Source: Jimgerdemannia flammicorona (Eukaryota). From it: a stretch of DNA of 35,251 nt. Where the stretch lies: assembly GCA_003990765.1 (NCBI GenBank), contig RBNJ01000256.1, forward strand, positions 1 to 35,251, written 5' to 3'. This document shows, in pieces, positions 3,900-35,251 of the stretch. The notes beneath the pieces are model-generated. The model worked only from the letters and a program-made list of their open reading frames with translations, made no database searches and was not told the DNA's origin. The position numbers and the translations under genes were made by a program. Within the stretch, counting starts at the first letter, position 1. Every line of letters starts with the position of its first letter.

Positions 3900-4165
3900 A
3901 AAGAACTAGTATCATAAGTTGCATAGAATATGAGTAGGCTGGTATTGTGAGCCACATAATAGCAAAAAAGAGGCTGGTGTTGCAAGCTATACAGTGATAG
4001 AAAGGAGGCTGGTGTCATGAGCTACATGATGGCAAAAAGACTGATATAGATGAATGAAGGGTTGGTGTCATGAACTATGTGATGATGTAAGACTGATGAG
4101 GAGAAGTAAGGCTAGTATTATGCACTATATAGGACCTAGAGTAAGCTAGTGTCACGAGCTACATA
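3900..4165. repeat. About 7 copies of a ~20-nt motif (ggctggtgtcatgagctaca-like) downstream of the YR ORF
   Basis: Copies near 3904, 3937, 3972, 4007, 4060, 4111 and 4144, with periods of 33-35 or 51-53 nt. Confidence 0.75.
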
Positions 4166-4191
4166 GGAGAAGAGGAGGGGGGGGAATGATG

Positions 4192-5200
4192 TTAAACACT
4201 AGTAATATAAGTAGCCAGATAAACATTATGAGTTAACAAAGCCCAGAGGTGCAAAATGTGAGAGATGGGTATATGAATATAGCCTTTAAATACTATGCTA
4301 TCCTATCAACCCAACACCTGAATCTCATAATTGGATAAACTAGCTGCAGCAGCATTGGATGTTGCACTAATCCAAAAGCTATATCCAGCATAAAGGTGTG
4401 GATTCAAACTAATCTGTAAAAGCAATGCATGAAGATGACTAATGAGATAGACTTGAGAGAATGATCAATTTGCAGAACACTGGAACAGAGGCATGTCAGG
4501 TGGGGCTGAGTATGCCAGGTAGAGAAGACAGAGTAAAGATATGATACATAGTATAGCAGAGTCTGTTTTTGTGATAATGAACAATGTGCTCTGGCAAAAT
4601 GGATCTGTTTTAGAGGCCGGCAGAGTGAGTATAATATGGGTGGGGTCTGCAATATTAGGTTGAAAAACCATATTACTACAGGACAACTGAGAGACAAGAT
4701 TTCTATATGAATTTACTGGACCAAAGAAATCTGACATATGCAAGTGATATTGCAGTCATGAGATACAGATCATTATGATCAGATAACTGAAGTAAACTGA
4801 TAAGACAATGAAGAATACCAAGCATGATAGGAAGCCAAGGTTGAGCTCGGCAGATACCTAGCTATTGCTTCACACCTTGCATCACTTGAGGAATTTGATA
4901 AAGACCAATAAACAGATCAGTAAAGTCAGAGTTAATATGAAGAGACTGAACAGCTGAGAGGTAACATTTGATTGTGGTCAGTTGAAGCCATCACAATGCC
5001 AAGTTATAGTCCCACTACATTAGCACTAGTTTGAATATAGGCAGGGGGCCACAAGAGGCATGATTACTATCATGGAGGGTGCAGAATTGATTTTCCTGAA
5101 GAATATAAGTGGCACATTGTTTTTGCTAGTCCAAACTACAAAAAGAAGACAATGACAGGTGGAAATGTGGAATACAAATGATATTAATTGTACTCAGGTG
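4192..5200 (-). pseudogene. Tyrosine recombinase of the Ngaro/DIRS element
   Basis: LPASKTDPFCQ (typical LPxSKTDPFRxG) and YAGYSFWISATSNAAAASLSNYEIQVLG**DSIVFKGYI (typical HSFRIGAA...LGRWxSxxFxxYI). Confidence 0.88.
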
Positions 5201-6760
5201 TATCTAAGAATAGGGGGCAAGACAATGAAAACTAGAAAGATCAGCATTGGATAAAGTATCAGTAATGCCATTATCAGACATTGAGATAAATATGATATGA
5301 AGTTCAAAAGCATTGTGTACCATCAGAAAATATAGCTGGCAGAGGAGTTCCAGCAGAAGAGGGTTGCATGAAGAGTCTGAGTTAATAATGATAATGACTA
5401 CCTAGTTATCAGCATGAAGTAATATATAGTAAAAATGCCCTTGAATACCCCAGGTAGTAGTAGTGGCAATCAGGGCATAGAGTTCCTTGAACTGAATGTC
5501 GCATAAGGCCATATCAGGAGGCCAAGGAGCAGAAAACCATTTATAATTAAAATATACACCAAAGTCTTTGGCACCACTGGTATCTGTTCACACATATTGG
5601 GTTTATAGCACCATACAATCAGATGTATGATAGAAATATAATTTCAGTGGGGTAAGAATTCAAGCCACTATCAAATATCCACATAGAACTCCTCATTCAG
5701 TAGGATGTAGAATGAGGCATTGCTAGAAAGGAGGTTAATAAACTGCCAGAAGAATGGGCAGCCTGGCAGAATAATTTTACAAGTAAATACCAAAGAGCTA
5801 TTAAGAGATTGCAATTGAGGGTGGGTGCATAGTGTGTGCAATAACCATTGCTGAAGAATGGCAAGCAGTATGTCAAGCTTGCCAGGAGGAAGATGGGCTT
5901 CTATAGCCATTATATTCAGTTTGATACCCAAGAAAATGAGTAAGGTTGTCAGGCCCTCCACCTTATGCTCTTGAATCAACCAACCAAGATGGCAACAGAT
6001 AGCAAGGAGCAAATAGGTCAGTAAGGGCAGATGAATGAGATGGTGGTAAGATAAGAAGAAAGTCATCAATATAGTGAATGAGCATACCAATGTCATGATG
6101 ATGGGTAATCCATACAAGAAGTTTCATAAAAAGGTTAAAAAGGAATTGGAATGAAGATGTGCCAAAAGATACAAATCAATTGAAGTAAAACTGACTGGAC
6201 TATTTAAAGTCCAGTAACTTTCAATCCATAGGATAGATAAGAATATGATGATATTTATTGGTGAGATTGATCTTCAATAAAAGACAGCTCTGACCAAAGT
6301 AGCAAACTAAGTCCAAAGTCTTGTCAAACTTAATATAAGAAAGCTGAAAGGCATTGGTATCAATACTGGCATTAATGGAATCACTGTGATGAGACCAAGA
6401 GAGGTTGTGAATATGATAACATGTACTACTTCAATTCTTCTTTACATAATGCCAAGAGGAGATGAGTAGAAGCACTCAAATAGAGGTGATAAAAACAGGC
6501 CACAAATCCTGCTGGTAGCTACTTTCCACTTGATTTTGGGTGAGATTGCTTCTGGATGTTCAAAAGTAGAGTGATGATTGTAGGACAGTAAGTACCAATA
6601 AGGTCCATTAAAGCCAAGAAGAGCACCTTAAGTAATGGCAGCAATAGTGGCCTGAGTTACCAATGAATCAGGATACAACTGGAGCTCCTATATCCACATG
6701 AGAGGGCGAAGAGAAGAAGAGGAGAGAGGAAAATGATATAGAATATCTTGAGTGGTGTTA
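5200..6760 (-). pseudogene. Reverse transcriptase and RNase H of the Ngaro/DIRS element
   Basis: YPDSLV...GALLGFNGP; NLSWSHHSDSINASID; LIHYIDDFLL (~6055-6085); FLGIKLN; RNase H remnants QFKELYA, LHADN and DNGITDTLS (typical NxIADALSR). Many stops and frameshifts. Confidence 0.88.
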
Positions 6761-6859
6761 TTAAGAGGAGTGGTAAATTAGTGATGAAGTAGAGTATTTG
6801 TAGTGGCTGGGGATATATATATAGAATAAGTGGGAGTAAGTTCCTAGAGACAAGGTGAT

Positions 6860-8437
6860 GGGTTGTGGGAGCATCCATATTACATATGATTACCACTGCA
6901 ATGGAAGCAGATATGTACATAAGAGAAACCTTTTCTATTGTACTCAGGATCCTTCATGGGTGATCCATCAAACAGAATACCATTATATACCTGACAAGTA
7001 GACCATTGAGAGGCATTATTAGCTTTTGGAGCTGAAACGCCATTAGTAAGACATAGCCACCATTGTGTATTATGAGACTTAGAGGACTTAGGCAGATGAG
7101 ATGAAGAGGTCAGAGTTTGCTCATAAAGAGGTTGGGGTCACACCAGGCCCAATACTTGCATTATGCCAAAGAAATACCATTATTCATGATCTCTACTAGT
7201 CATTTTGTATGAAAGGAAACATGATAGTTGAGAAGTTCAGATCAATACGATGATATTGAGAGTAAGATAAAATCCATAGTGTACATATATAAAGAATGGA
7301 GTAGGATCAGTGATGCCCAGGTATGTGTCATAAAGAATGCTGAATTATGTGAGCAAGGTGGTGAGAAAAGCAGGAATATCCAGAAGGTCTTTGATAAGAG
7401 ATAGCAGCTTGTAAAGAATTATCTGAGTGTCTGACTTGTCAAACATTTCAATGAATTGAGCTTGAGAAAAACCACTGATAGAGATGATATTCTGCTCTGG
7501 AAAATGGCCAAGTGATATAGCAGTGAATGAATTGTCAACAACTATGGCCAACAGCCATTGATTGACATAAGTATATTTTAGAGAGAGGTTGATGCTCTGA
7601 ACAATGGTATGAGCAGTGATGACAGAAGAAGATAAAGAGATAGACTCACCATGGGGATTACTGGTGGGGCCATAAATACCAGTGGGACAAACTGTAGTGA
7701 TAGTCAGTAGGGGTTGGAATGTAGATGCAATAGCCACTGAAAGAGAGACAGTAGCATGATTGATAAAAACTTGATCAATAATGAGAGATATGGTCTGAAC
7801 AGAGGCAATGGGAATTTCAGTAGCTAGTGCCAGTACTAATAAAGATACAGTATCCAGGTGAGAGCATAGAAGCTAAAAAGGTTCATTGAACCAACAATCT
7901 TATGCAATTCTGGCTTTGATAGAAATATCAGTGTCCAGTATACTCAAAAAAACTGATCTGGTCACCATAACACTGATCTGATTCAAACCCTAATTTTCAA
8001 AATGCAATAACTCAGCATAAACTCATCAAAATCTAACATTCTTTAGCTTGTTAGAATCACATTAATACAGTGAATCTAACAAACTAAAATATGTTAAATT
8101 TAGATGAGTTTTCGTCGAGTTATTATATTTTGAAAATTAAGGTTTGAATCAAACTACTTGCAAGAGCCTTGGATGTAGCATGCACCAATAAACATATGGT
8201 TTGGTAAGGTGCATGAGTAGAATTATCAGAGAGATTGATGAGATAATCAGCAAGAATATCAAAGTCAGAGTTCTTGCTATCAGACTCTAGGTCATCCTGT
8301 AGGAAGCAGAGTACCCACTCAATGAAAATAACATAAGAGTAGAAAGAACAGGTGGTGGAGCCCAGATCATGTTGGCTCTTCAATATATGAGATGGGTCAT
8401 ATTGATACAAGAGACAGGAATTTGCAAAGAGGACCAT
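6860..8437 (-). pseudogene. ORF1/gag of the Ngaro/DIRS element, interrupted by a foldback element
   Basis: C-terminal Cys/His motif TCQVYN...SYVHICFHCSGNH..GC (~6870-7000), typical of DIRS/Ngaro gag. Strand composition is the same on both sides of the 7979-8151 hairpin. The 5' end is uncertain. Confidence 0.6.
7979..8151. mobile_element. ~173-bp foldback/MITE-like palindrome
   Basis: Arms 7979-8060 and 8070-8151 are near-perfect reverse complements (tgattcaaaccctaattttcaaaatgcaataactc... vs ...gagttattatattttgaaaattaaggtttgaatca), with a 9-nt loop. Confidence 0.8.
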
Positions 8438-9601
8438 GGGGTAATAAAAATTGAGTATATCCAGAAGTATAGAATATAAGTATACTATACATACAAATGT
8501 ACAGAAGTATAAAACATGAGTATAAAGTACATATGATATGTAAAGTACATATGAAGTATTGGGTGAAAATGAATGATGGATTACATGTAGAATTAATATG
8601 CACACTGTGCTAATACTATAAAAGAAAACCTATGCCCTATTTACATATACCTTAAATAAAAACATCAGTATTAAAACATTTCTAGATATTAGATACCTAA
8701 GACATTCCTGCATTTATTAATCTGTAGTCTTGAATGAGCCCACTCATTATATCTCAGAGAGACCTTTTGAGAATACTAGAACATTATCCTTAATGATAAT
8801 ATAATCTATAAATACTTTCTTTAGATTTTATATATAGATTGAATAACTGAGATTTTACATAGAAATTATCAGTATAGAAGTCTATACATAATGATTCCAT
8901 AATACTTTTCATATTTTATAGACTGTTATAGTATATATTATGCTTTATTTATAATATTGTAATTTTGAAATTATATCTATAACTTTATATACTCTTCTAA
9001 GCTATATTTGTTGAGGAGATTCTATATATAGAATATCTAAATTGTATAACTTTTCTATTGAAAATCAGGATAAATCTCTTAACTGTATAATTGAGACTGC
9101 ATTTTTTATAACAGTAATCAGAACACTTGTAATTAATATATCTATATTACTAAAGTTGCTAGGCTGATCATAACCTTCATTATAAAAGAGATTAATTTTA
9201 TTGAAGTTGCATAGATTATATATTTTACATATTACAGATGAATAATGTAAAACTAATAAGATAGTATAAGTCATATACTGATATTTCAAGTTGCAATTCC
9301 AACAATTCTATTTCATTTTTCTCTATTATTTATATTTGAATAATTCTATTTTTTTGTATGTAGGTATATATATATCATAAGAATAACAAAGTGTTTTGAA
9401 AGGATAAGAATTGCAGTCATTTTGCAGATATTTATTATTATATATATTACTTTACAAAATTTTATTTCAGAGAGAAAAATATATATATAGATCACACAAG
9501 TGTATGTCCATTTACAGTGCTTGCTGTCGAATTGCATAATAAAAGAACTTAATAAAGATGTAATGCAAAAAGTTGCTATAGATAGCGAAACGAGACATGA
9601 G

Positions 9602-10551
9602 CTTAATGTAACAACTCCTCAAAAGATTACATTTAATATACAGTTTAAGACACTATTATGAATAATTACCTAATAAAAAATTATCTGGCATAACTGGCCC
9701 TCCCTCACTCCATTGCTCCTAAGATGTCAATGATGTTCCTAAACAGTCAATTCTGGTATACAAACTACAGCTAGTTATCATTTCGACGACATGCAAAAAA
9801 GGTATCTTGATATGAACCTTCCCTCCATCGACCTCTTTCCGTATTCCTTAACGGTAAACGGTAATACGGGAGCAGTCAATACTGGTACGTTACATCTGGC
9901 CTGCCCCTGTTAGGATGGTCTGAGGAGATAATTATCTGGTCAAACCACAGCAAATCCGCTCTCTCTCGCTCTCTCATTCCCTTGCCGCCATCGCCGTTCC
10001 CTTAAGATGAATGAGAATATGCGAACAGTCAATTAGGGTACCCCAACTATAACTTTTCCCATCACGATGGCCTGAGAAAATAATTACCTTGTATTGGCGC
10101 AATCACACTATCCATCTCTCCCTCGATCCCTCGCTGCCAACAACATTCCTTAAGATGAATGGGAATATGCAAACAATCAAATCGGGTACGCCAACTCTAA
10201 CACGATTCCATTGTGATGGCCTAAAAAAATATATACCTGAAAAAAAGCACTCTCAAACCCACTCTCCCTCGACCCCTTTCCGCCGCCGAAACAGCTCTTT
10301 AACGATGAATGCGTAAATGCGAACAGTCAATCCTGGTATGCTAACTCCGACTCTCTTTCATTATGATTGCCTGAGAGAATTACCTGGACAAAAAGTAAGT
10401 CTCACATAACCCCTCTTCCCTCCCCACCCCTCTCTCTCGCTCCCTTCCCGTCCACACCGTTCCATAAAGGTAATTGAGAATAGGTAAAAAATCAATCCTG
10501 GTACGTCGGCTCTGGCTCACTATTATTGCTATGGTATAAGAAAAGAATTAC
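9602..10551 (-). repeat. Array of 6-7 homologous 83-89-nt intron-like units separated by 34-79-nt purine-rich spacers
   Basis: Units at 10463-10551, 10297-10383, 10149-10236, 10001-10087, 9847-9935, 9719-9805 and a degenerate one at 9602-9684. Minus-strand consensus: CAG|GTAATT...TACCAGGATTGACTG...CATTCATCTTAAG|G. Confidence 0.85.
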
Positions 10552-10684
10552 GTGATCAACATTCACCCTCCCTCAACCCCTCCAACAACACCTTGTACAC
10601 ACTCGCCGCTGACACTGTTGGCCACACCCCTCTTCGAAGACCAACATGTTGTGCACACTCGCCGCGTCCTATCCCTAATGTTGA

Positions 10685-12736
10685 CTATAAAATACGTCCA
10701 CTGACAAATGAAAGAGGGTAGTTACCTGGTGACAGTGCCATGGGCTCCCAGTTCGATGCCTTCCATTTGATCATCGGGAAACCGATCCCTTCCATCGGGT
10801 CTTGGTAGGTAAGGGGGACAGCCTCAACCCATTCCATGGGGTCACAATGGTGTTGTATACTGGCCTTGGCCATGACGTAATCGAGCATCGCCATTGCCAT
10901 CGGCCTCAAGATTGGAACAAAAGTCCCTATAGGTTTGGAAGGTGTTTTCAAGATGAATCACTATCTATGCAATAAGGAATGAGAGCTGCAACCTTGCTGT
11001 TATACTTTTATCAATGTTCATATCAAGGCCAGGAAATCCACTCTCACAGCATAGAAGAGGCAGTGGAAGAGGCGGCAGATGAGAGAGAAGCAGAGGCGAA
11101 GGAAGAAGCTGAGGTGGAAGATGAGGGAGAGGTATAGCCAGCAGATGAGGGAGAGGCTGATTGAGCAGTTGAGGCAGCCGGGGGTGAAATTCCCTCACTT
11201 CTGGTAAAATATATAATTTAAATGAAATGAGAACTATAGAACACTTTTATATAAACCACATGTAGCGAGCATTACCAGAAGCAACTGGCTTGTTAATTTC
11301 ACCAATTTCCGTGGTGCTGAAAGCATCATCACGGATGGCGTTGGAAACGCGTTCGGTACTGCCGCGGATGGTTTCAGTGGTTTGGGGGTTGTTGGTGGAA
11401 GAGGTGCCATGGCAGAAGGAACGGAAGGCGGCATTGATATGGGAAGCGTCTTCCCGTATTGTCCTGGCTTGGGCAGATTCAAGAAGTTGCGGACGAAAAG
11501 CGTCGACCCTGGCAGCATCGAAATCGGTGTGGCCACCGCGCAGAGTGTCAGTGTTCTATGAGAACAGCACTGGTATTGACAGGGTAAGATGTGGCGGGTT
11601 TGGTGGTGTACCTGATGGAAGTGGCAGACGAAAACGTTAACGTTAAGGGTGGGATGAACGACCAGTATCGGTGTATGTATGTTTGTTTACCTGTGGCCGC
11701 AGGGCTTCAATATCGAAAGGAGAACCAACACTAAGGCCTGGTTCAAAATAATGATCAGTACCTTAGTGATGGTTTCCAACTGGGTAGTCAGGGTGGAACT
11801 CGTACCTCGGCCCGCCTGCCTCGATCTTCCGCTGCCTCGCCATCGCCACATGCCCTCGCTCCTCGCGCCCCCGTTCCTCGCGCTCCCGCTCCTCGCGCTC
11901 CCGCTCCTCGCGCTCCCGCTCCTCGCGCCCCCGCTCCTCGCGCCCCCGCTCCTCGCGCCCCCACTCCTCGCGCCCCCGCTCCTCGCGCCCCCGCTCCTCG
12001 CGCTCCCGCTCCTCGCGCTCCCGCTCCTCGCGCTCCCGCTCCTCGCGCTCCCGCTCCTCCTTATCGCGCTCTTTGCGCTTTTCCATCTTGCGCTCCTGCT
12101 TCTATCGCGTTCCTTGCGCTCTTGCTCCATGGCAACGACTTTCCTCTTCTTGACGAGGACGAGGCCCTGGTCCCTCCGCACACATTCATCCTCCGGACCC
12201 TCGTCAGCGACCTCCCTCCTCGGCAGAATGGGAACGTGGATAAGTCCACATCAGCGCTCGATGGTAACCCTCTTCTTCCCCTCATGTGTGACCGTCGTCC
12301 TCGTCGTCTCTTTCACGGCAGCCTATTCGCCGGCTTTGCGTTTCCTATCTTCCACGCTATGGCTACTGGTAGCAGCCGGAGTGGGCACCACTACTGGCCC
12401 TCCGGCGTTGGGCTCTTTCTTGGAATGACGGCGGCACTTCGTTTCGGAAGCTTCGCACGACGGTTCGACAGCACGAGCCATCTTTCTCAGGCCAATGGTG
12501 GTAGAGATGCTCGTACTGGCCGGCATCTCGGTGCAGCTAGCGGTGTCAGGCGGTATGGCAGCCGGCCGGGAGACATCGGTGGGAGGTGGGGCGACTCTGA
12601 TCGTTGAACCTACCGATGGTGGTCAGTGCATATTAATCTATAAAACATATAAAAAATGTATAACGTGTTAGTTATATTGCTCAGAATACAGGGACGGGGG
12701 GCAGTGAAGAGGTAAAACGTACTTCCTATAAGCCAT
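10685..12736 (-). pseudogene. Multi-exon gene for a low-complexity E/R-rich and Ser-rich protein, with internal stops and a frameshift
   Basis: ATG at 12736 (MAYRK). GT-AG introns include 12722-12638 (gtacgt...ctaac...ttatag), one starting ~11690, ~11275-11201 and 10725-10685. The frame continues through several single stops (HHR*VQRS, AGE*AAV, IER*CG) into the EERER repeats. No recognisable domain. Confidence 0.55.
11861..12059. repeat. 15-bp minisatellite, ~13 copies (cctcgcgc[c/t]cccgct), encoding EERER/EERGR on the minus strand
   Basis: Direct reading of the sequence; ORF 11763-12086. Confidence 0.95.
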
Positions 12737-13866
12737 CTTTGCTGTTGTTATAGGGTAATGAAAGAACGGTAGGTTTTGTTGTGGGCGGTGTGAGTTGGAT
12801 AAGTTGGAAAGTGGTTGGGTTGTAAGTAACATGGGTAGTGTTCAGGAAGTGAAGCCTAAAAAATGGTGGTGGCGGGGAAATATAAGGGAGATCCCTAACC
12901 GGTCACACTCTGCGGCAAATCGGGCACGCGCCCACAATTCATCAGATGACTTCACAGTTCCTCCTTGACGTAATGGTTTCAAACATTGCGTGCGCCATTT
13001 TCCGTCCTCCCGACAAATTTTTCCAAGAGCTGAGCCGAGTCACTGTGCGCTTTTGGATTTAGTTATCCCGTAATGTGAAAGTTGACTCCAAGCTCCGCGA
13101 TTTTTTTTAGACACCTATCACAAGACAACTACAATGCTTGGGTGCATGCATTTGGCATCTCTTGTCTCCTTTTCGGGGTGAAGGATTAGAGGAGACCTCC
13201 TTTTTCTACAACTTCCACAGCCATTTTAGCCGGAATACGTCTACAAATGACCTAGCATAAAATAGAAAGGTAATGGTTCATATAGACCTCCTTGAAGTGT
13301 AAGCAAATCGAACGCACAGATTTTTTGTTTTTATTTTCGGTTACACCAGAAAGGGACTTCATCAGACCTGAACGCCAAATCAGATCTGCGAGAGATTGGA
13401 TGGGGTGCGCCATTCATGCGTTTCAGAGAGGTAAGGACTAACGCCATTTGTGCGTTTCAGAGATACGTGATTTGTCTCTGATGGCGTTCCCTGGTGTCAA
13501 CAAAAATAGTAACCCTGGGCGCCTTGTGTTTTTCTTAACCTCCACCACCAATCCCCGCCGGCATTACCTACAACCCGCCATTACAAAAATCAAGACCACT
13601 ACCCATTTCGCGATTGACAAATTGCACCTCACGCATTTCACCGACAATGAAAAATCTGTCGAGGCGCAGGCGGAGGTTCAAAATTAAGCAGGGTGGGTTG
13701 AGTTTTTGGGCGGGATTTCTTGACGTAATAACATTATCAGGTACCAGATATGCGGTTTTAAGGGGTGCGCCTTCCGGCGGCTGATGGAAACGAAGACCAG
13801 TTTCCAGATATAATAAATCGGCCGAATGATCCCTGATAATTTGGACACTAAATCAAAATGATTGTA

Positions 13867-16672: not shown

Positions 16673-18247
16673 TATCATAGAGTAGTTGCTGAGTCCTTCA
16701 AATATGTCAGATTCTTTTCAAGATATATCTCTTAGACTAACTCAAGTTTATTATAAGTAAGTTCTTATTAGAGTACCTTCTCAAGGTCTTATAGTCCTCA
16801 AACATCTTATCTTTAAACTGGCTTGTTATCTCTTAGATTGCTTGCAAGGAAGTATATATAATTAAACTTTACTGACTTTATTTCAGAGAAAATAAGAGGG
16901 GTATTTATACAAAATATAATTCAATAGTTGCTAAGATATAAAGCTAAATATAAATTCCAATAACTAAAACAAAATGCCAGGACAGAGAAAACTGCTAAGT
17001 TCCAGTGTTGGTACAGATAGTTATATAGGTTCAGAATGCTGGTATAATTTCAGTGATACAGGAAAATAGTACTGGAATAATTCTGAGTCACATCAGAATA
17101 CTGGTGGTAGAACAGCTATTACACAGGAAAAGAGTGCTGGCATAATTCTGTATAATCAAGGAACTTAGAGCAGAATGTTCAAGACTATAGAGGCTTCATC
17201 CTCATTAGAGGTCAGAATGTCTTCAAAGGAAATGAGGTCTGCAAATGTTTTGTCTGTCTCATTGTCATCATTGTTACATAGATCACATGTTTCATATATG
17301 TCATGTGGGATGACACCATCACTGATGACATCATCACATTTGGTGGTATTAGAAATAAGGAGATCTGGAGCTCTCCAGTCTATGAGGTTCTCTTCTACAA
17401 AATAGGAGACAAATGTGGGGTTTTGGAGAGATCTAACCTGGATGCTTGGGCCTTAGAATACTGAGATCAATCCTTGCAGGAATTGGTCTGAGTTGTTCTA
17501 GGGGATGGGATGCCAGAAGTTTTCTACTTTATTACTGTTGAGAGTGATAGTGGACTGGGCTTCTGTAGCCACCCTGGCTTCTAGTGCATTGATATAGCAG
17601 ACTTACAGATCTCTGAAGTCTGAGACTCTAATATACTCTAAGTTGGAGATTGACCACAGTGTATGTCTGAAGATCTGATAGATCTTCTTAGTTATTCTTG
17701 CTTTGTATATATCCATAGGAGTGGTATCTTGTAACTCTTGAGGGCTGGCCTGAGGGAACTTCCAGCAGAGGAGGTTTTCTATTTTGTACTTCTGCCACAT
17801 TTGGAGATATTCAGTAGCAATGGTGATCCTGGTTTCCATTTCACAACAGTAGAGGATATAGTGATAAGGGTCACCTGTACCCAGATTAATGCTAGGAGTC
17901 CTTCTTGTGCAGGTCCTCATGGCTCTACTGATGTCTTGGAATATCCTTTCTTTGACTGAGGTGCCTTGGTGGTTCCTTGACCTTGAGGTTTGGTAAGCAG
18001 TAGGTATTTGTTTGTGGTAAGTCTTTGAGCTATTTTGGGATTGGTGCTCTTGTTGGTTGCTGCTACTGTGGTTCCTTGATCCTTCTTTTATATTCCTCAA
18101 GATACCCATACTGTGGTCACAATGACTTACAGTTGGTCATCATTACTCATCTTGTATGCTGTATGATCTTCTTGTGCTCTAATCTGGTAGCTTGTAAGGA
18201 AAGGCTGTCCCCTATACTAATGTCATCATTCTGGGGTCACTATTACA
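16673..18247 (-). repeat. 3' LTR (1575 bp)
   Basis: Direct repeat of 23375-24904. Minus-strand ends TGTAAT...ATGATA (decayed TG...CA). TATA-like TATAAATA at 16902-16909. Confidence 0.95.
17165..18109 (-). pseudogene. ~314-codon ORF of unknown function inside the LTR (U3 region)
   Basis: A single frame over 945 nt with only point-mutation stops. The homologous frame in the other LTR (23836-24766) is open at those positions. Confidence 0.6.
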
Positions 18248-18259
18248 TCTTTCTCCTGA
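18248..18259 (-). other. Polypurine tract
   Basis: Minus strand tcaggagaaaga immediately precedes the 3' LTR TG. Confidence 0.75.
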
Positions 18260-18559
18260 ATAAGGATCTTCTTGAACATTCTAATTCATTGGTCCAGTTC
18301 GGAAAAATTTGCTGATCTCATAACCTCTGGCAAGGGGTCAAAAAGTGGTGTTTATGGGCTGGTATCTTCCCTATATATTTTGGCATGAAGGTGAAAGGTC
18401 ACTCTCTTTATATAGAGCAAGGGCCTGATTCTGATCTTGATTAATCAGTTGATGATTTGAACTTCTCTGGCTTCAAAAGTCTCACAGATGAGTAGTTACT
18501 GGTGCTGTATCTCTTAGAGAATGGTCCAGACAGATAGCCTGCTGATCACAGGACCTTAT

Positions 18560-20047
18560 ATAGGTTCATGATACTTCATGAGTCAATTCCTATATATTAT
18601 GATAGGCAGTATGGTCTCTGAGATTTTTCTAAGCCAGAAGGTAGTTCCCTTGATATCTTGCACATAGAAGAGTTCTTCCCATTTGGGCTCCAGTTTTTGT
18701 AACCATAAGGCTTCTACTATATTTCGATACAATAGGACCTTTTCACTGATTTGAATGGGTTCTAGGGTCTTGTAATTCTTTTCTGCATTCTTCTTTGTCA
18801 TCACTTGTGACTTGATGATGTAATCTTCAGCCTACTTCCTGATTTAGTATAGTCTCCAGATTTCCGAGTCAACCCATCTCCAAGTTAGGTCTAGATTTGT
18901 TGCTGAGGTTCCATCAGAATCTTCTTCTCTGAAGAGTAGTTCTTTTGGAGTAAAGTGTGTACTCTATGACTGTATGTCTTATAGAACAGAGAGGGCAGTT
19001 GGGAGGTAGTTATTCCAATTCTCATATGTATCTAAGATCTTCACCAGGATATTCTTGAGGGTCTTGTTGATTCTCTCTATCTGTTCATTTCCTTGAGGGT
19101 GGACACAGTTGTCTTGATGTGCTGAATCTTGTATTTCTGATATATTATCTCATGGAATCTATTGACAAATTCTGTACCATGGACTGTGGTGATTTGCCTT
19201 GGTGTCTTGTAGTGGCAGATGATTTCTTGGTGCAGGAAGTTGGCTATAGAGAGGGCATTGGCTTCTTGTAATGCTCCTGCTTCTATCCATTTGATAAAGA
19301 GGTCTACAATAACTATAATGTAGTGATTTCCTGATAGTATTACTGGTAGTGGTCCAATGATTTCCATTACAATGTGGTGGAAGGGGATAGGCTCAATTCT
19401 TGATGACCCAGGTATCTGGTCTTGCTGATCTTGTTTCTGTTTTTAGTACTTATCACACCCTTTGACAAATTGGCACAGGTCTTCTTCCATCTTGGGCCAC
19501 CACATAGTTCTTCTTTCCTTATCATATATATTGGTTCCTCTTAGGTATCCTTATTCATGTACTTCCTTCATTACTTGATACTTCTTATATTTGGGTATTA
19601 CTAGTTTTTCTCTTTTTCTGAGTGTAGTGTTGTCTAGTTCAAACTGTTTCCAAGTCCAGTTGATGATGGTGATTGTCCAGAGTTCAAGGGGGTTGGGCAT
19701 CTTTCACTGCCCAAGATAGCTGATTAATCTATAGTATAACTCTTTATTCATGTTGAATAGTCTTGATGGGGGTGTTTCGGGGTGTCCTTGAGAGTGCATT
19801 GGTATTGGTATTGGTTTTTCCTGAGTGGTGCTTGATGGTACAGTCATACTCTTATAGCCTGTAGATCTATCTGGCATATATTCCTTTGGGGTTCAGAGTG
19901 TGGAATAGTCAGACAAGAGTGGAATGGTATGTTTGAATGGTGAAGTGTTTCTCAGCTAGATAGTAGTGGAACTTGTCTACTGTCCAAACTACTGCTAAGC
20001 ATTCAAGCTTGTATGACTTGCAGTTTTGTTCTGCTCCATGGGTACCT
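18560..20047 (-). pseudogene. Gypsy RNase H C-terminal part and integrase
   Basis: AEQNCKSYKLECLAVVWTVDKFHYYL, NALSR, WWPKMEEDLCQFVKGCD, MEIIGPLP...YIIVIVDLFIKWIEA, TVHGTEFVN and KLEPKWEELF (decayed GPY/F). Confidence 0.92.
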
Positions 20048-21214
20048 CAGCTACCAGCTCTTTCTCCACTACCTTACTGGCTATAATGGTTTGGTAGGCA
20101 ACCTCCTAAGTCCACTTTCCACAATTATTACTCTCTCTATCTTGGGTTGGTTTGCTGTACTTGTTGCAGTGCAGTGGGAGGGAGGCAATGTTGATGAGTT
20201 GCTCCTTTATTAGAATCAGATCAGTGTCTTCTCTACTTTTTCACAGTTTTTGATACCTTTGGCTGTGTCTGGAGTGCATTCATTTTGGTGCAGTGCCTTC
20301 TTTCTTTTACCATCACCAACAAGGTACTGTCTCAGTGTGTCTCAGGCTACATAGGAAGTCAGCTGACCTTGGACATCAAGTGCCCAGTATAGGTTACCTG
20401 CACGTCCTCAGTACCTATGGTAGGGCCCTCTGGCTTTGGCAAGCTTCCTGGTGAGTGCAGTTCTGGCATAGGTAACTGTTTTTTGGGTGTTGTCAGGATG
20501 GGAGGGGAGATGGCCATCATAGATAGGAGGAAGGGTGATTATGGTGAACCAGTAGGGTGCCAGACTGGGGGCAGTCATCAGGGCTGGGGTGGGTGCTGCT
20601 TTGGTGGGGTCTTTTGATTGGTGTAGAGCAGTTAGATGGTAGATATTACTCTTGGCTTCTTTTGGTAATTTGGTAGGTTGGGCCCTAGTCATTGGGAGGG
20701 GTTGGGGGGCCCAAGGCTACCCATTTTAGACATCTTGGCTATATTCAACTAGAACTGAGAGCTGATACAGCAACATGATCGAGGCCTGCAGGCTTGAGTA
20801 GTGGAATATTGGGGGTCTCCTCCTGCCTTACATGTAAGTCCTTTACTCACCTTGACTGGGAGAACCAGGCCCTATATGATGTACTTTGATAAGAGTTTTT
20901 CTTTACCTGTCATCCTCCTTGGAGTGGCAGGGGCTATTCAATTTGGCTTTGGTATAGCCTTATACATATATTGGGGTCTCAGGCATATGCTTTTGGTCAT
21001 TGGCATATGGCTGGGTTACCCCTGGTGATAGGAAGAGCATGGTGTACAGAATGAGGTACAGGCTAATATAGGTTCTGCTGTACCTGATATGGTCGAGCTG
21101 CTGAACAATAGCTAGCCTAGGTTAATGGGGGGGCAGTGCTTGATGGGTAGTGGGGCAGGGTTTTGGCCTATATAGTCTAGGTTCCCTTCCAATAAAAATC
21201 TGCAGGACATTGAG

Positions 21215-21249
<35 letters not shown>
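20048..21249 (+). mobile_element. Retroposed polyadenylated insert (1.2 kb; 5'-truncated LINE 3' end or retrocopy) with 7-bp TSD
   Basis: AATAAA at 21191-21196, A29 at 21221-21249, TSD GGTACCT (20041-20047) / GGTATCT (21250-21256). Removing it restores the RNase H reading YASK-GT-HGAEQN. Confidence 0.88.
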
Positions 21250-21251
<2 letters not shown>

Positions 21252-22130
21252 TATCTTTGCTTGCATAGGAGATGACATATTCATGTCTATCTTTCTTCTG
21301 AGCTAGGACTGCTCTAAGTCCTATAGCACTTGCATCTGTCTATAGGATGAATTCTAGGTTCCAATCTGGTCTTCTGAGGATGGGTGTTTGGATCAACCTA
21401 ATCTTGAGTTCATTGAAGATTTTTTGACATTCCTTGGTCTATTTGAATTTGGTCTCTTTCTTCAGTAGCTCATAGATAGGTGCTGCAATGTTGGAGTATC
21501 CTTTGATGAATCTTCTGTAGTAGCTGGCCAGTCTAAGGAAGGCATGGACTTCTGTAGTTGTTCTTGGTCTCAGGTAGGCTGCAACTGTCTCAATCTTCAT
21601 GGGATCTGTGTGGATTCTGGTCTGATTGATGAGGTGTCCTAGGTAGGCAATTTTCTGAGCTGCAAACTTGCATTTCTTGGGCTTGATATAGAGGCCATGC
21701 TCCTTGAGCTTCTTGAGGGCTAGCTGTATGTAGTTGATATATTCCCATGCAGTATTGCTGAAGATGATCACATCATCAACATAGACAAAGAGCCATTTTT
21801 CAATCTCGTTGCTGAAGGCTCCATTTATCATTTGCTGAAAACTTGCTGGGGCATTGCATATTCCAAATGGCATTCACAGGTAGATATAGGTAGCATCAGA
21901 TGTGATGAAGGCTGATTTCTCACTGGTATCTTGAGTGAGACCAATCTGATGGAAGCCTGAGAACAGATCCAAGATAGTATAGTACTTGGCTTCACTTCCA
22001 AAAGTGGTAAGGATTTCTTGAATATTTGGCAAGGGCTACTTATCCTTCTTGGTAATTGTATTGAGCTTTCTGTAGTCAATACAAAGTCTTAGCACAAACT
22101 CTCCAGGCTTGCTTCCTTTCTTGCTTTTGC
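21250..22130 (-). pseudogene. Gypsy reverse transcriptase and RNase H N-terminal part
   Basis: LRLCIDYRKLN, LDLFSGFHQI, MPFGICNAPASFQ, VYVDDVII, KPKKCKF, YLGH, FLRLASYYRRFIKGYS, TDASAIG and VISYASK. Confidence 0.95.
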
Positions 22131-23345
22131 TTTCTTCTGAGACTAGAGGAGTACCTTCAATGATTTGGTAGGTAGCTTTATCTAACTCTATATCTTGATC
22201 AATCTCCTTGGGTTGGGTCTTGCTTTGAATAGTGATAGCTGGGGTCTTCTTCAGTCTTCCAACTGGCTTGCTGTTGCTCTTCTTATCATAGGGCTTGGAC
22301 CAGATTCTGATACCTTCAGTAGCAGGGTAAAATTCAAGCTCCTTATAGTATTCTTCATCATCAGTATCACCAATATCCTTGATGACTACTATATTGGTTT
22401 GTTCTCTGGTTCTAGCATTGCTTGGTTGGACTTTGTATCTTGTTTTGGTCATACAATTATTTGCATAGTGGCCTTCTTCTCTACATCTGAAGTATGTGAT
22501 ATTGTATTCTTCTGTAGCAGCTGCAAATCTCTACACTGGTCTCCTGTTGGTACTTCAGACTTCTCTAACAACATCACTAAGGTGAGTAGTCATCTCAGCA
22601 AACTACTTGGCAAGTTTCTCCACTAGGTCAGCTTTGGCTTTCTGGGGGATAAGTGGGGATGGTTATCTGTTTACAACTGTAGCAGATATGATACTGGTTG
22701 GCTTTGATGGCTCTATCTTGATACTAGTTATTTTCTCCATTGAGTGTTTGGCAGAGTATCTAGCAGTCCAATATCTCTGTACAAAGACCACTTTCTGATC
22801 AAGAATCAGTAGAGCTGGGGTAGACTGGATTGCTAGGGCAATTCCAGGGTAAACTCCTTTGAGAAAGATTAAATCCACTATTTGTTCCTTGAGGACATTA
22901 TCATAGTCAGGCAGGACAATCTGGTGGCAGATTTGGGTATAGAATGAGTTGGAATCTTCACTGAGTCTCTGGCAGATAGTATTGAGTTAATTCTTGAGCT
23001 TGTTTGATCTCTTTAGTATAGTATGTTGTTCTGAGGAAGGCCTTCATGTTAGCAAGTTTGGCTACATCATTATCTGCAATAGTGGCTACATTGAACTTGT
23101 CTCTGGCAGGTCCTCTGAGGCTGACTGGTAGAAGGGCCAATTGTGCATCCATACCAAGGGCCCATATATTGGTGAATTGTTCAAAGTCTTCAATAAAGAT
23201 CAGGATTGTCTCTTCAGTAGTATATCTATAGAATGTGGGTGGGTGTATTTCTATCTTGTTTTGAATTCTTGCAGGGGTGACTCTTGTAGTCAGGGTAGTT
23301 GTTGTGGAGATTGTTTATTTTTCAGCTTGAAAGTGAGGGATTCAT
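22130..23345 (-). pseudogene. Gypsy gag, fused in frame to mid-RT with the protease deleted
   Basis: PPTFY...FIEDFE, LRGPARDKF, EDSNSFY and the Zn knuckle YFRCREEGHYANNC (~22457-22504). ORF 22036-22452 runs straight from the gag tail into KKGSKPGEFVLRLCIDY. Confidence 0.85.
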
Positions 23346-23354
23346 CTTAAATTA

Positions 23355-23371
23355 CTAGCCAATGGGTACCA
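23355..23371 (-). other. Putative primer-binding site
   Basis: TGGTACCCATTGG lies 3 nt inside the 5' LTR and starts with TGG (complement of tRNA CCA). It may be a CpG-decayed TGGCGCCC (tRNA-Lys type; inference). Confidence 0.55.
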
Positions 23372-23374
23372 AGT

Positions 23375-24904
23375 TGTCATATAGTGGTCGCTGAGTCCTT
23401 GAAATATGTCAGATTCTCTTCAAGGTGTATCTCTTAGACTAACTCAAGTTTGTTATAAGCAAGTTCTTATTGGAGTGCCTTCCTATGATCTTATAGTCCT
23501 CAAACTTCTTATCTTTAAACTGTCTTGTTATCTCTTTAGATTGCTTGTAAGGAAGTATGTATAAGTGAACTGGAACTGACTTTATTTCAAAGAAAATAAG
23601 AGGGGTATTTATACAAAATAGAATTTAATGGTTGCTAAGATATAAGGCTAAATATAAATTTCAATAACTAAAATAAAATGCCAGGATATGGAAAACTGCT
23701 AAGTTCCAGGGTTGGCACAGATGGTTGCACAGAGTCAGGATGCTGGTATAATTCAGTGTCACATCAGAATGCCAGTGGTGGAACAGCTGTTATATAGGAA
23801 AAGAGTGCTGGTATAATTCAATATCACTAAGGAACTTAGAGCAGAATGTTCAAGACCATAGGGGCTTCATTCTCATCTAAGATCAGGATGTCTTCAAAGG
23901 AGATGAGATCCATGAACATCTCAACTGTCTCATCATGTAGGTCATACATTTTGCATATGTTATGCAGGATGATGTCATCACCAATGATGTTATCACATTT
24001 AGTGGTGGCAGGAACAAGGAGGTCTGGAGCTCTCCAGTCTATGAGGTTCTCTTCTACAAAATAGGAGACAAATGTGAGATCTTGAGAAGGTCTAACCTGG
24101 ATGCTTGGGCCTTGAAATACTGAGATCAATCTTTGCAGGAATTGGTCTGGGTTGTCCTGGAGGATGAGATGCCAGAAGTCTTCTACTTCATCACTATTGA
24201 GAGTGATAGTGGACTGGGCTTCTGTAGCCACTCTGGTTTCTAGTACATTCATACAGTAGGCTGACAGATCTCTGAAATCTGAGACACTAACATACTCCAA
24301 GTTGGAGATTGACCATAGTGTATGCCTGAAGATCTGATGGATCTTCTTAGCTATTCTTCATGTATATCCATGGGAGTGATATCTTATAACTCTTGGGGAC
24401 TGGCCTGTGGGAACTCCCAGCAGAGAAGGTTTTCTATTTCATACTCCTGCCATATTTGGAGGCATTTGATAGCCATAGTGATCCTTGTTTCCATTTTACA
24501 ATAATAGAGAATATAATAATAAGAGTCACCAGTACCCAGGTTGATACTAGGAGTCCTTCTTGAGTGGGTCTTCATGGCTCTTCTGATGTCTTGGAACATC
24601 GTTTCTTTGACTGAGGTGCCTTGGTGGTTCCTTGACCTTGAGGTTTGGCAAGCAGCAGACATTTTATTTATGGTAAGTCTTTGAGCTATTTTGAGATTGG
24701 TGGGTCTTGTTGGTTGCTGCTACTGCAGTTCCTTGATCCTCCTTTTATATTCCTCAAGATACCCATACTGTGGTCACAATGACTCACAGTTGGTCATCAT
24801 TGCTCATCTTTTATGCCATATGATCTTCTTGTGCTCCAATCTGGTGGCTTGCAAGGAAAGGCTGTCTCCTGTGCTGATGTCATCATTCTGGGGTCACTGT
24901 TACA
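23375..24904 (-). repeat. 5' LTR (1530 bp)
   Basis: Minus-strand ends TGTAACA...ATGACA. TATAAATA at 23606-23613 and AATAAA at 23581-23586. Confidence 0.95.
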
Positions 24905-31947: not shown

Positions 31948-33166
31948 ATTTACATTTATCTTTTGTCATGAAGTTTTATTGATTATTTTCATATGTTGTA
32001 TATATATATAGTACTATATTATCAATTTATCATTGGGCCCATTGGTGGCTCTGACAATTTGCTGACTTCTATCTTTCTCTCTCTTCAAAGAAAAAGATTT
32101 TAACAGGTAGTCCAAATAGTTGAATGCTCATATGGTCTCTAGCTTTTTGATAACCTATCCTGTTTCACTTTTTCAACTAAATAGAATATTGCATATGACC
32201 CAAATAGCACCTATATTAAATGAATATCTATTTTGTTATTTGGTATATTTCTAGACTACCTTTGATCTACTTATATTGGGAGCTCACACAACTTTCATAA
32301 TTTATGATTTTTAAGCTATTGAAATTCTGAAATATATTTGTCAATTACTAATAAAAAAAAAAAAAGTGAATGGTTTACAGATGTTTGTCAATAATAAAAA
32401 CATTTTGGTTTAAACTATTAAAATAAATATTATAGTAATCAATTTAATTCCTTGCTTCCAGCATAACTAATATACTACATATATATAAAAGCTTTTATAA
32501 TTTTCTTCTTATTTTCTCATAGTAGTTCTGGCTTAAAGTTTAAAGTTTATTATTTATATTATCCCTTAGGTTGTAAAGCAGACAAATATGCCTGCAAAAA
32601 TTATGATACTTATATATTTTAGCTAATATTTATTTTATTAAATTTTAAATTATTGTTTTACTTATTATAACAATTATATTTTTTTATTTATAATTAGAAT
32701 ATACCAAATTTGGAAATTATTTTTTTATGTTTATTATAATTTTTTTATATATAAATTATTTAGTAAAGCTTTATTTTACCTTTTTTAGAAATTATAAAAA
32801 TAATATACATTATTACAGATATTATGGCTAAATAAATTTTTAGCAGGCAAATTTGCCTGTATCTTTAAATTTGCCTGTGTTTTTCTTACAGATTATGAAA
32901 TAGATTATATGACAGATATTTATATTGATTAAAATTTAGTAACTATGTTTTTTATATATTTATTTCTTAGTAGTTAATTAGTATATTTTTGAGTTATTTT
33001 CATTATAGTAAAGTATTCTTATTTTTGTTTTTGATTTTAATCTTAAATTCATTATATAGTTATCAACTCTAACTCTAATCAGCACACCTTTCATCAGTAA
33101 CATTCAGGTGACACAAGATTTGGATAACACTTTCTGCGAAGTTTTTGGTGAAAAGCTACTATCAAC

Positions 33167-35086
33167 ATGGCGAGCAACGAGCAAACTGGTGGGCAGGTCG
33201 GCCAGGGGGGCAGCTGGGCCTTCGACTGGCAGCAGGTTGGGAGGAAACGAGGAGATGGTCTGGGGATGCCAGGGCCGTCTGTGGTGGGTGGTGGTGCTGG
33301 AGGTGGAGGGAGAGGTGGACTGAGGCAGAGAGGTGGGGGGAGGGCGACTTTTGCCGACAAGGTCAGGATGGGGAAGATGGCCGCAGGACTGGATGGTTGA
33401 TTGGGACTGGGGAAGGCGATGCCGGGTGCAGAAGGAGGGCAGGGAGGATCCCCCATGGGAGCCACAGTCGGTATGGGGGGAGGGGGAGTAGGGGTTGGAG
33501 ATGTGACTGCTGATGGGGCTGTGACAGGGAATCTGGAAAAAAATCCAGATGTGACGGTGATTGGCGGATTAGGTCAGAAGGAGGGCACGAGGCCTGGGGA
33601 CCTGGCTAATGGAGTGACAGGCATGGTGTCGGCACCGTTACTCAAAAAGTCGATGTCAGAATTCGCAGTCACATTGTGTTTCCGAGGCTTGGCGGTGACT
33701 GCGAGGATGATCCTGGGGCTGGTGGCACAGGAGGTGAAGGGGGCAGCTACGGTTAAGTTCATAAAGGGGAAGGAAGGGATTGAGGTTGGGTTTGAAGAAG
33801 AGGTGTCGATGCTGGAGGCTATGGAGAAAGGGGTAGTAGTGGGTGGAGTGGTAGTTCCTATAGCAAGGTGCATGCGCTGGGACCCGAGAGTGGTGCAGTT
33901 GACGGTGCTGGATCTTCCTATGGTGTTGTGGGAGAGGGCTAGGGAGTTGATTGTGGGGTTGGTAAAGGAGTATGGGGATGTCATTGATATCGGGTTCAAA
34001 GTCTGGGAGGGTACGGTACTTAGGACTGGAGACGTTGATGTAAGAGTACGCTTGTTTGGTCGGGAGAACACGGGGAAGACGAGGGACTGGCCGGCGACGC
34101 TGAAGTGGGGACCAATTGAGTGCAGGATCTCGTGGGTGAAAGGGACGCTGGAGGAAGAGGAGGATTTGCTGGAGGCTCTTGAGGATCTGATGGGAGCTGT
34201 CGAGAGGAGACAATTGGCTTGGAAGGAGTATGAGGCCAAGACGGTGGTGGAAATTGTAGAAGGGAAGAAGATCAGGATGGATCGAGGAACTTGGGAGAAG
34301 ATGCAGGGGAGGCGTATTCAGAAGGAGCTGCTGGAGAAATTGGGAGGAGGCGTGGTGGAAGGTAGAGAGGGAGGAAGTGGCGTAGGATCGAGGGAAAGTG
34401 ACTGGGCTGGGGAGCCCAGAGTGGATCAAAGGGTGGCCCAAGAGGTCCGTGGAGAAGGAGGGCAGGGCGGCGTGGTGGAGGATGCTGAGATGAGCGTAGA
34501 AGTACAGCCACAGTATGGGGTCCCGGGAGGAGTCGGAGGTGAGGAGGAGCTTCTTGATGTCCTGGAGGAGGAGTGGGATGAGTCGGGAAGGAGGATCACA
34601 GTGGTGGACCCAGTGGTTGGGGGGGAAGGGAGTGCCCAGGGTGCCGAGGCAGTGGTGGAGGAGGAGAAGTGGCTGTGGAAGACTCTGGAAGGGGTGGCAG
34701 CTGAGGAGCTGGGAGGTGAGCACTTCCGGGTTATGAGTGATAGGTACTGGGAGGAAATTCTGCGTGGGGAGGAGGTGCCAAAGAAGGTCCAGAATGAAAT
34801 TCTGGCAGTGCTCCTGGAGTCGGTGGAGTATCAAGTCGATGATCAGCAAGAGGAGGAACTTCGAGTGATTGCGAATGATCGAGCAGCTTACCTGTGGAAC
34901 TCGAAGAAATGGTCGGAGAAGTGGGGAGTAGTGTGCAGGGAGTATCAGACCGAATTCGAAGTAATTGATGGAGCAGAGTGCCAGGAAATCTTGGAGGCAC
35001 TGGATGCGCAGGAGGTGATGGAGGACGAGTTGGAGGCTGAGTGGCACCTGGATATGGAGGGGGACAGGAGGAGCATGGAGTTCTAG
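33167..35086 (+). pseudogene. LINE ORF1 (~639 codons) with a single premature stop
   Basis: ORFs 33167-33400 and 33401-35086 are in frame, separated by TGA at 33398-33400 where the left copy has TGG (LDSWLDLG). Confidence 0.9.
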
Positions 35087-35116
35087 ATTGTGATATCCCT
35101 ACCAACATTATTCAAT

Positions 35117-35251
35117 ATAAACAGTACAACTAGAATCTTTTCTTTGAACGTCAATGGGCTAAGGGGGGCAAAACGGCGTAGAAACATTTTTAGCTGGTTG
35201 AAGGGTCTGGAGGCAGATCTCTTCCTATTGCAGGATGTGCGGTATGAGCCG
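35117..35251 (+). pseudogene. LINE ORF2 N-terminus (APE-like endonuclease); start codon is ATA (ATG in the left copy)
   Basis: INSTTRIFSLNVNGLRGAKRRRNIFSWLKGLEADLFLLQDVRYEP; L1 APE motif SLNVNGL...WLK...DxxxLQ. Confidence 0.85.

Follow-up and report, generated by a model that had tools for sequence, protein, structure and literature searches.

On the minus strand of a contig from the fungus Jimgerdemannia flammicorona (RBNJ01000256.1; by the window we mean the whole stretch of 35,251 nucleotides (nt) that was analysed), we found that positions 9602-10551 hold an array of homologous, intron-type units separated by purine-rich spacers and that this array belongs to the 3' end of a spliced transcript. 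The reading that we favour, at a probability of about 0.7, is that the array arose when the 3'-terminal intron/exon module of a gene transcribed by RNA polymerase II underwent segmental tandem duplication. The repeat itself, its transcription, the splice joints and the retention of some units in RNA are all direct observations.

In transcript order the six clear units, u1 to u6, measure 89, 87, 88, 87, 89 and 87 nt (10463-10551, 10297-10383, 10149-10236, 10001-10087, 9847-9935 and 9719-9805), and the spacers that follow them, s1 to s6, measure 79, 60, 61, 65, 41 and 34 nt (s1 to s5 at 10384-10462, 10237-10296, 10088-10148, 9936-10000 and 9806-9846). A possible seventh unit of 83 nt, u7, occupies 9602-9684. 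These coordinates and lengths, the 83-nt unit included, had been proposed in an initial annotation made from the letters of the DNA, and we confirmed them, together with its description of the unit ends: on the minus strand four of seven units start with GTAATT or GTATAT and three with ATAATT or ATACCT, CAG or AAG precedes six of seven (the exception, u1, follows CAC), and six of seven end in AG (the exception is again u1, which ends in TG). The branch-like motif TTGAC/TTGAT that the same annotation had noticed is indeed present in all six clear units, although its A is 28-30 nt away from the final base of the unit and not about 27 nt; the motif was not found in u7.

The array repeats with a period of about 150 bp, and both units and spacers are homologous from copy to copy. 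Comparison of the region with itself by BLAST, offset by one period, gave a match of 70% identity over 380 nt (E = 5e-32), and a repeat search returned families at spacings of 146-168 nt; together these show that the repetition is not due to chance. When a profile of the six units was searched against the window at E <= 1, it recovered the same six and no copy outside the array, with E values of 6e-16 to 1e-21 that are circular in that the profile was made from those very units. The units have 38% G+C and 34% T, and the spacers, on the RNA strand, are 69% purine and 43% G and have in common a GGGGTCGAGGGAGAG-type motif, one extra copy of which lies upstream at 10564-10581. Spacer s1 also contains a canonical G-quadruplex motif (minus strand, 10410-10430; four runs of three or four G with loops of 1-4 nt), a kind of motif that occurs at only one other locus in the window; in the remaining spacers there are two or three runs of G.

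Transcription and splicing were assessed with contigs from public sequencing runs over 8800-13400: X1 and X2, which are small sets from two studies, and X3, a large set represented by a single unspliced 212-nt piece of unknown kind that is uninformative. Contig cover excludes 8800-9569, 12958-13400 and u7. That X1 and X2 derive from RNA was only a guess at the outset, and we treat them as cDNA-derived on the strength of their joints, eight of nine of which read CT..AC on the plus strand, and hence GT..AG on the minus one; such ends indicate that the contigs are cDNA-like and that the minus strand is the transcribed one. Joint 9999>10087 skips 87 nt and joint 10147>10236 skips 88 nt, and with the cut placed at +1 these correspond exactly to u4 (10001-10087) and u3 (10149-10236), both of them spliced GT..AG introns. 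The minus-strand transcription and splicing at unit boundaries that the initial annotation anticipated is thus borne out. It had placed the array directly 3' of a gene, whereas the joints make it part of the transcript of that gene.

The other units have different fates. A donor at 10725 (CAG|GTAACT) is used with two acceptors. Joint 10528>10726, found in X1 and X2, removes a 197-nt intron (10529-10725) whose acceptor, CCATAG|, lies inside u1; this intron contains a spacer-like stretch, s0 (10552-10684), which carries the extra copy of the spacer motif, followed by the first 23 nt of u1, and the last 66 nt of u1 are exon. Unit u1 is therefore not excised as a unit. Joint 10296>10726 removes 429 nt (10297-10725), and its acceptor is the AG of u2 itself. 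In the alternative form u2, although it has GT..AG ends, is retained, as 10269-10528 runs unbroken in contigs of both X1 and X2; the contigs carry no isoform proportions, strand labels or small-RNA information, and a rare excision of u2 by itself could have gone unassembled. Spacer s2 lies between joints of one X1 contig. The same contig is unbroken over 9703-9999 with no differences from the window, which shows that neither u5 nor u6 is removed from the last exon, whose contig-covered extent (9703-10000) comprises s4, u5, s5, u6 and part of s6. Two of the six clear units are therefore excised as such (u3 and u4), one lends an acceptor (u2), one is part intron and part exon (u1) and two lie in the last exon (u5 and u6), so that the initial picture of a tail packed with introns holds for u3 and u4 and was otherwise overstated. 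GT opens the two excised units, and AT opens the two that remain in the last exon as well as u7. At the position of the internal AG of u1 the other five units have, in the alignment, CA, CA, CG, CC and CG, which rules this AG out as a feature of all units.

Is u7 a member of the array at all? The initial count of up to seven units was sound for the six clear ones, and the seventh was missed by the profile of the other six (E > 10). Alignment to the units with a scheme tolerant of transitions gave z = 3.57, a score that none of 500 shuffles and none of 41 windows of the AT-rich flank reached, and u7, which differs mostly by transitions and lies in an AT-rich, CpG-poor flank, is probably a heavily decayed unit copy, as judged from its sequence. 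Two other candidates were rejected. A shortened unit, 'u0', at 10672-10725 (the start of the 197-nt intron) scored z = -0.89 in the plain alignment and 1.84 in the transition-tolerant one, with 16 of 300 shuffles as good, and the other short introns of the gene gave z = 1.11, -0.86 and, for the AT-rich one, a marginal 2.27.

The gene to which the array belongs extends upstream over 10726-12840, where X1 and X2 have GT..AG joints and where the protein models P0003, P0004, P0010 and P0011 map. Its other short introns, all at contig joints, lie at 12638-12722 (85 nt), about 11609-11690 (79 nt) and 11201-11275 (75 nt, with an alternative of 167 nt at 11109-11275). With the RNA-supported exons joined, the messages measure 2.2-2.5 kb, and their longest open frame is a low-complexity one of 167 amino acids, and no open reading frame of the transcript matched a Pfam family. 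Among all protein representatives, 7 matched the last upstream exon at E <= 0.001; word-based searching with P0004 gave 4, which are named hypothetical proteins of Jimgerdemannia flammicorona (Endogonales, Mucoromycota, by the lineage in the source names); and a protein search with the 150-amino-acid frame of exon 3 found no relatives. The gene model of this locus is P0011 (201 amino acids, partial), which ends at 10968, short of the array, and conflicts in part with the RNA-supported joints. Relative to P0004 the frame of the window copy shifts twice, near 11560 and near 10778, and its RNA-supported splice form meets a stop after ...AVLIEH. The host therefore belongs, as a transcribed but decaying copy, to a multi-copy gene family specific to the lineage, and whether it codes for a protein is doubtful.

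The paralogs nevertheless reveal where the family frame ends. The model P0010 is 88-97% identical to frames of the window and ends with ...GAHGTVT|SNNSELEPTFQD, and translation of the window across the RNA-supported junction 10726|10528 gives ...GAHGTVT|SNNSEPEPTYQD followed by a TGA at 10494-10492; of the 12 residues of the tail, 10 agree. The terminal stretch in the family frame, 10492-10528, thus supplies the last 12 codons and the TGA, which sits within the conserved core of u1 (CAGGATTGA). This match across the junction leads us to conclude that the terminal coding exon of the family corresponds to the 3' two-thirds of u1, and that in the isoform with the 197-nt intron everything downstream of u1 is 3' untranslated region (UTR). 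In u3 and u4 the sequence homologous to this exon is intron. The last seven residues of P0004, SIPGLTV, equal the translated core of u2 at 7 of 7 positions, the junction in the P0004 model being itself predicted.

Several further observations concern this gene and its models. Over 10968-12060, P0011 and the paralog models P0003, P0010 and P0004 use different frames and invented introns on the same DNA, and the annotation of the family looks unreliable. Exon 2 holds at 11852-12059 a 15-nt tandem repeat (GCCCCCGCTCCTCGC; 13.9 copies, 95% matches) that is open in several frames as a low-complexity peptide; adjoining it, X2 is without 26 nt at 12087, which makes the region beside the repeat polymorphic. 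At 10902-11062 a joint seen in X2 only skips 161 nt with non-canonical ends (GG..CA on the plus strand) while X1 runs through, and P0003, a gene model belonging to a second assembly of this species, connects the two sides at the protein level; a deletion allele is more likely here than splicing. Below 11799 contigs of both X1 and X2 continue with identical letters that are foreign to the window, which suggests transcripts of a paralogous copy or of another splice partner outside the window.

How could one array have come to hold copies with such different fates? We infer the mechanism of duplication, its neutrality and the order of events, and for neutrality the basis is the sequence of the window. 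The ancestral module would have been about 150 bp long and would have consisted of an intron-type unit of 87-89 nt (GT, then TTGAY about 29 nt from the AG, then AG) and a purine-rich stretch of 34-79 nt. Lying at the 3' end of the gene, it may have been multiplied through unequal exchange or slippage during replication until six or seven copies stood in a row, which would then have drifted separately into different splicing roles. Copies 3 and 4 keep GT and AG and serve as ordinary GT-AG introns, and copy 2 is either retained or removed as the end of a longer intron for which its AG is the acceptor. Copy 1, with no terminal AG, provides an internal one, its remainder being the terminal exon with the family-frame stop, and the donor at 10725 pairs with the AG of u1 or that of u2. 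Copies 5 to 7, with A in place of G at the first intron base, are part of the last exon or of the flank. Tandem exon-intron duplication, one of the options named at the outset, is supported in that the whole period of about 150 nt aligns, exons included. Nor does the near-constant unit length need a special function, since it equals the local intron size (75-89 nt); the variation in length lies in the spacers.

A comparison of divergence in units and spacers bears on this reading from both sides. In the period alignment units are 62.7% identical (1198 aligned column-pairs; pairwise unit identity 46-79%) and spacers 57.9% (679 column-pairs), gap columns per aligned column are 0.115 and 0.355, and gap events per substitution are 0.054 and 0.115, the unit gaps being inflated by a partial misalignment of u6. 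Overall, substitution divergence is similar in the two parts and indels are more frequent in spacers. The spacers were initially thought only weakly similar to one another; they are in fact homologous, and what stands of that description is that they vary in length and keep no frame. Between X2 and the window all four differences in 10269-10528 fall in the 79 nt of s1 and none in 181 nt of unit sequence (p = 0.0085). We read the low-complexity, purine-rich spacers as the more mutable part.

Three observations weigh against a purely neutral duplication. Among the copies with intact GT..AG ends, u2 to u4, the introns are 68, 71 and 79% identical and the exons 58, 54 and 57%, and for the u3/u4 pair (79% in the units) the difference between intron and exon conservation is significant (Fisher p = 0.006). 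Conservation of introns above exons is the reverse of the usual pattern and could reflect constraint on the units. All six units, two unspliced ones included, share an 18-nt core, RTACCnnnATTGAYTG. Finally, unit-like sequence has been kept at the P0004 locus even though the protein is only 65-79% identical over most of the mapped stretches.

These observations invite the alternative that selection has kept the array as a functional tail, whether as 3'-UTR introns after the stop or as a repeated element around a conserved core. Introns behind a stop could load exon-junction complexes and lead to nonsense-mediated decay, the choice between the 197-nt and 429-nt introns could control splicing, or the units could act as a protein-binding or lariat-derived element. 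In its favour are, besides the conservation in u2 to u4 and the invariant core, the position of the family-frame stop at 10494-10492, which in the 197-nt isoform precedes the introns u3 and u4, and the unit-like tails of two paralog models, P0004 and P0010. We nevertheless consider it unlikely. The two frameshifts relative to P0004 and the stop in the RNA-supported frame make a finely tuned 3' UTR improbable in this copy of the gene, the donor G has been lost in three of seven copies, the overall identities of units and spacers are close, no consensus structure emerged, and the surplus of gaps and polymorphism in the spacers fits mutable low-complexity DNA. Somewhat more doubtful again is the specific proposal that the units are a selected repeated RNA element, with the core and the length kept across copies and paralogs, and that the tail is a splicing-dependent regulatory array or a source of unstructured intron-derived RNAs. 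In the first case, introns of the 3' UTR, after the stop, would be switched on or off according to which of the two alternative introns, of 197 or 429 nt, is used; in the second, an early-diverging fungus would possess an analogue of the tandem-intron host genes of animals.

Segmental duplication, the reading we prefer, also has to be set against three ideas that the initial annotation had offered, wholly or in part, and that fared poorly. The first treats the units as mobile introns of the introner type that spread both locally and to other places in the genome, as their self-similarity, their complete set of splice signals and the presence of unit-like sequence at two other loci, known from paralog protein tails, might suggest. 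Those loci, judged from the protein models P0004 and P0010, are paralogs of the same family and not unrelated genes, and the window holds no copy outside the array. Introner-like elements are expected to be longer than regular introns and to have a stable fold with compensatory changes; the units, at 87-89 nt, are no longer than the gene's other short introns (85, 79 and 75 nt), their fold z-scores (+1.72, +1.75, +0.09, -0.25, +1.17 and +1.20 for u1 to u6) lie beside those of the other short introns (+0.74, +0.85 and +0.36; n = 3, all from the same gene), and RNAalifold found no consensus pair in the aligned units on either strand. Co-duplication of the flanking exons with the units, moreover, argues for a segmental event, and we regard an introner origin as very improbable. 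Two metagenome loci that matched the pattern of the unit core were set aside as chance, the profile match being confined to the 22-27 nt of the pattern itself.

We place at the same low level the second idea, that the spacers are variable coding micro-exons giving alternative C-terminal tails to the protein. Two RNA-supported acceptors do lead to different tails in the family frame, SNNSEPEPTYQD-stop and RAVSAAERGRGRVGLRVLFFRNVVGSEGSRERWIV-stop, and P0010 is annotated with a tail of the first, SNNSEPEPTYQD, type. Yet the spacer lengths keep no frame, the 197-nt isoform stops before every spacer, the frame of this copy is already broken upstream, and the frames of the transcript have no Pfam match.

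Fainter still are the prospects of the third idea, in which the units are small-RNA genes or derivatives of them, of the box C/D small nucleolar RNA (snoRNA) type, either released from introns as in the host of SNORD116 and SNORD115 or encoded on the plus strand. The architecture does resemble that of SNHG14, where consecutive tandem introns each yield a snoRNA (PMC11608373). On the plus strand two of six units (u2 and u4) have a one-mismatch C-like box near the 5' end paired with CTGA near the 3' end, and each box is found singly in three of six units at the same homologous place; the pair is broken in four of six, and no terminal stem was seen around these boxes by eye. On the sense (minus) strand the C-like box and CTGA occur together in none of the six, and all joints with canonical ends indicate that strand. 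Rfam gave no match at the gathering score in the window, and at E <= 10 a single one, to the archaeal sR4 (E = 4.5; 13.7 bits against a cut-off of 50). The absence of consensus pairs applies to both strands, a scan for tRNAs found no genes, and in the mirtron test for a stable hairpin no unit beat its shuffles by more than 0.25 standard deviations.

That the array is an ordinary decaying satellite of about 150 bp unrelated to splicing, for which equal divergence of units and spacers was to have spoken, is barely credible: substitution divergence is indeed similar (62.7% and 57.9%) and Tandem Repeats Finder did not score the array, but contigs from two runs join at GT..AG exactly at unit ends and link the array to upstream exons.

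The surroundings of the gene differ sharply from it in composition. Observed/expected CpG ratios of 0.85 for the array and 0.89 for the host gene contrast with 0.17 for the left flank (8000-9600) and with 0.03-0.05 for relics of transposable elements (4000-8000 and a long terminal repeat (LTR) element), in agreement with the initial remark that the array had retained its CpGs. That CpG has been lost to this extreme degree from repeats, while genes are spared, suggests C>T mutation that is either linked to methylation or targeted to repeats. The LTR retrotransposon lies at 16675-24904, with LTRs of about 1.5 kb (16675-18247 and 23377-24904) that are 84% identical, broken frames for reverse transcriptase, RNase H and integrase, and a CpG ratio of 0.03; Pfam searches with 9 and then 60 reading frames found retrotransposon domains only. 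The two ends of the window, 251-2414 and 33086-35248, form an inverted duplication (74% identical over 2186 nt) with an open frame of 561 amino acids in one arm that is split into pieces of 287 and 327 amino acids in the other. The 561-amino-acid frame matches no Pfam family, and a search of 5.8 billion proteins yielded only 2 relatives, both unnamed. A 105-nt tandem repeat (1.9 copies, 86% matches) lies at 2323-2517, where the left arm has its inner edge, with one further copy at 33085-33168.

If segmental duplication is the right explanation, the array offers an RNA-supported snapshot of introns multiplying and dying through local duplication. Within one array, homologous copies of about 88 nt play four roles, those of spliced intron, retained exon segment, acceptor supplier and stop-carrying terminal coding exon, and copies 3 and 4 lose as intron what copy 1 keeps as exon. 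Such intermediates are seldom caught because intron sequence decays fast, and this one comes from early-diverging fungi (Endogonales). It leaves the known mechanisms of intron gain unchanged and is in itself a fairly ordinary example of local intron duplication. Our literature searches found nothing pertinent on tandem homologous introns and, for the organism, no genome paper that reports on introns. Zhuo et al. (2007) reportedly described human genes in which introns arose from tandem arrays.

Among known systems, the fungal introner-like elements share with the array self-similar spliceosomal introns that carry all splice signals. As characterized in PMC3609843, however, they are roughly twice as long as ordinary introns and have stable structures, unlike our units, which are not longer, have no stable fold, were duplicated together with their exons and show no dispersal within the window. 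The SNORD116 and SNORD115 arrays of SNHG14 (PMC11608373) likewise consist of homologous tandem introns, with short, poorly conserved non-coding exons and introns that are better conserved. Here the array differs in that sense-strand C/D boxes (0 of 6 units), an Rfam match and a consensus fold are all absent, in that its introns measure only 87-89 nt, and in that it belongs to a fungus.

Closer to our case is intron gain by tandem genomic duplication, an accepted route that is reviewed in PMC3443670, and the creation by tandem repeats of alternatively used introns in human genes is discussed in PMC2812944. In these accounts, as in the array, a local duplication adds donor/acceptor pairs that the spliceosome uses, often alternatively. 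In the classic model as given in PMC3443670, a duplicated exonic AGGT gives rise to one new intron, whereas here a whole pre-existing module of intron plus exon would have been amplified.

The closest parallel is with the fungal same-gene intron duplications described by Collemare et al. (2013; PMC3609843), half of which are segmental and include flanking exons, with introns of normal length and folding energy. Our array likewise has homologous spliced introns in one gene (u3 and u4, 79% identical, with the AG of u2 also in use), exon sequence duplicated on each side (the period aligns, and the shifted match spans 380 nt), and a length and folding energy like those of ordinary introns, the comparison being with three introns of the same gene. 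It departs from the cases in that study in having six or seven head-to-tail copies and not a pair, and in lying at and after a stop codon and not between coding exons. In addition, its unit identities of 46-79% fall below the near-identity that the BlastN search of the defining study called for, and it is an old or fast-evolving duplication of a sort that a near-identity screen would probably miss. It also differs from the duplications in that source in the division of roles among its copies, which serve as intron, retained exon, acceptor supplier and terminal coding exon within a single transcript.

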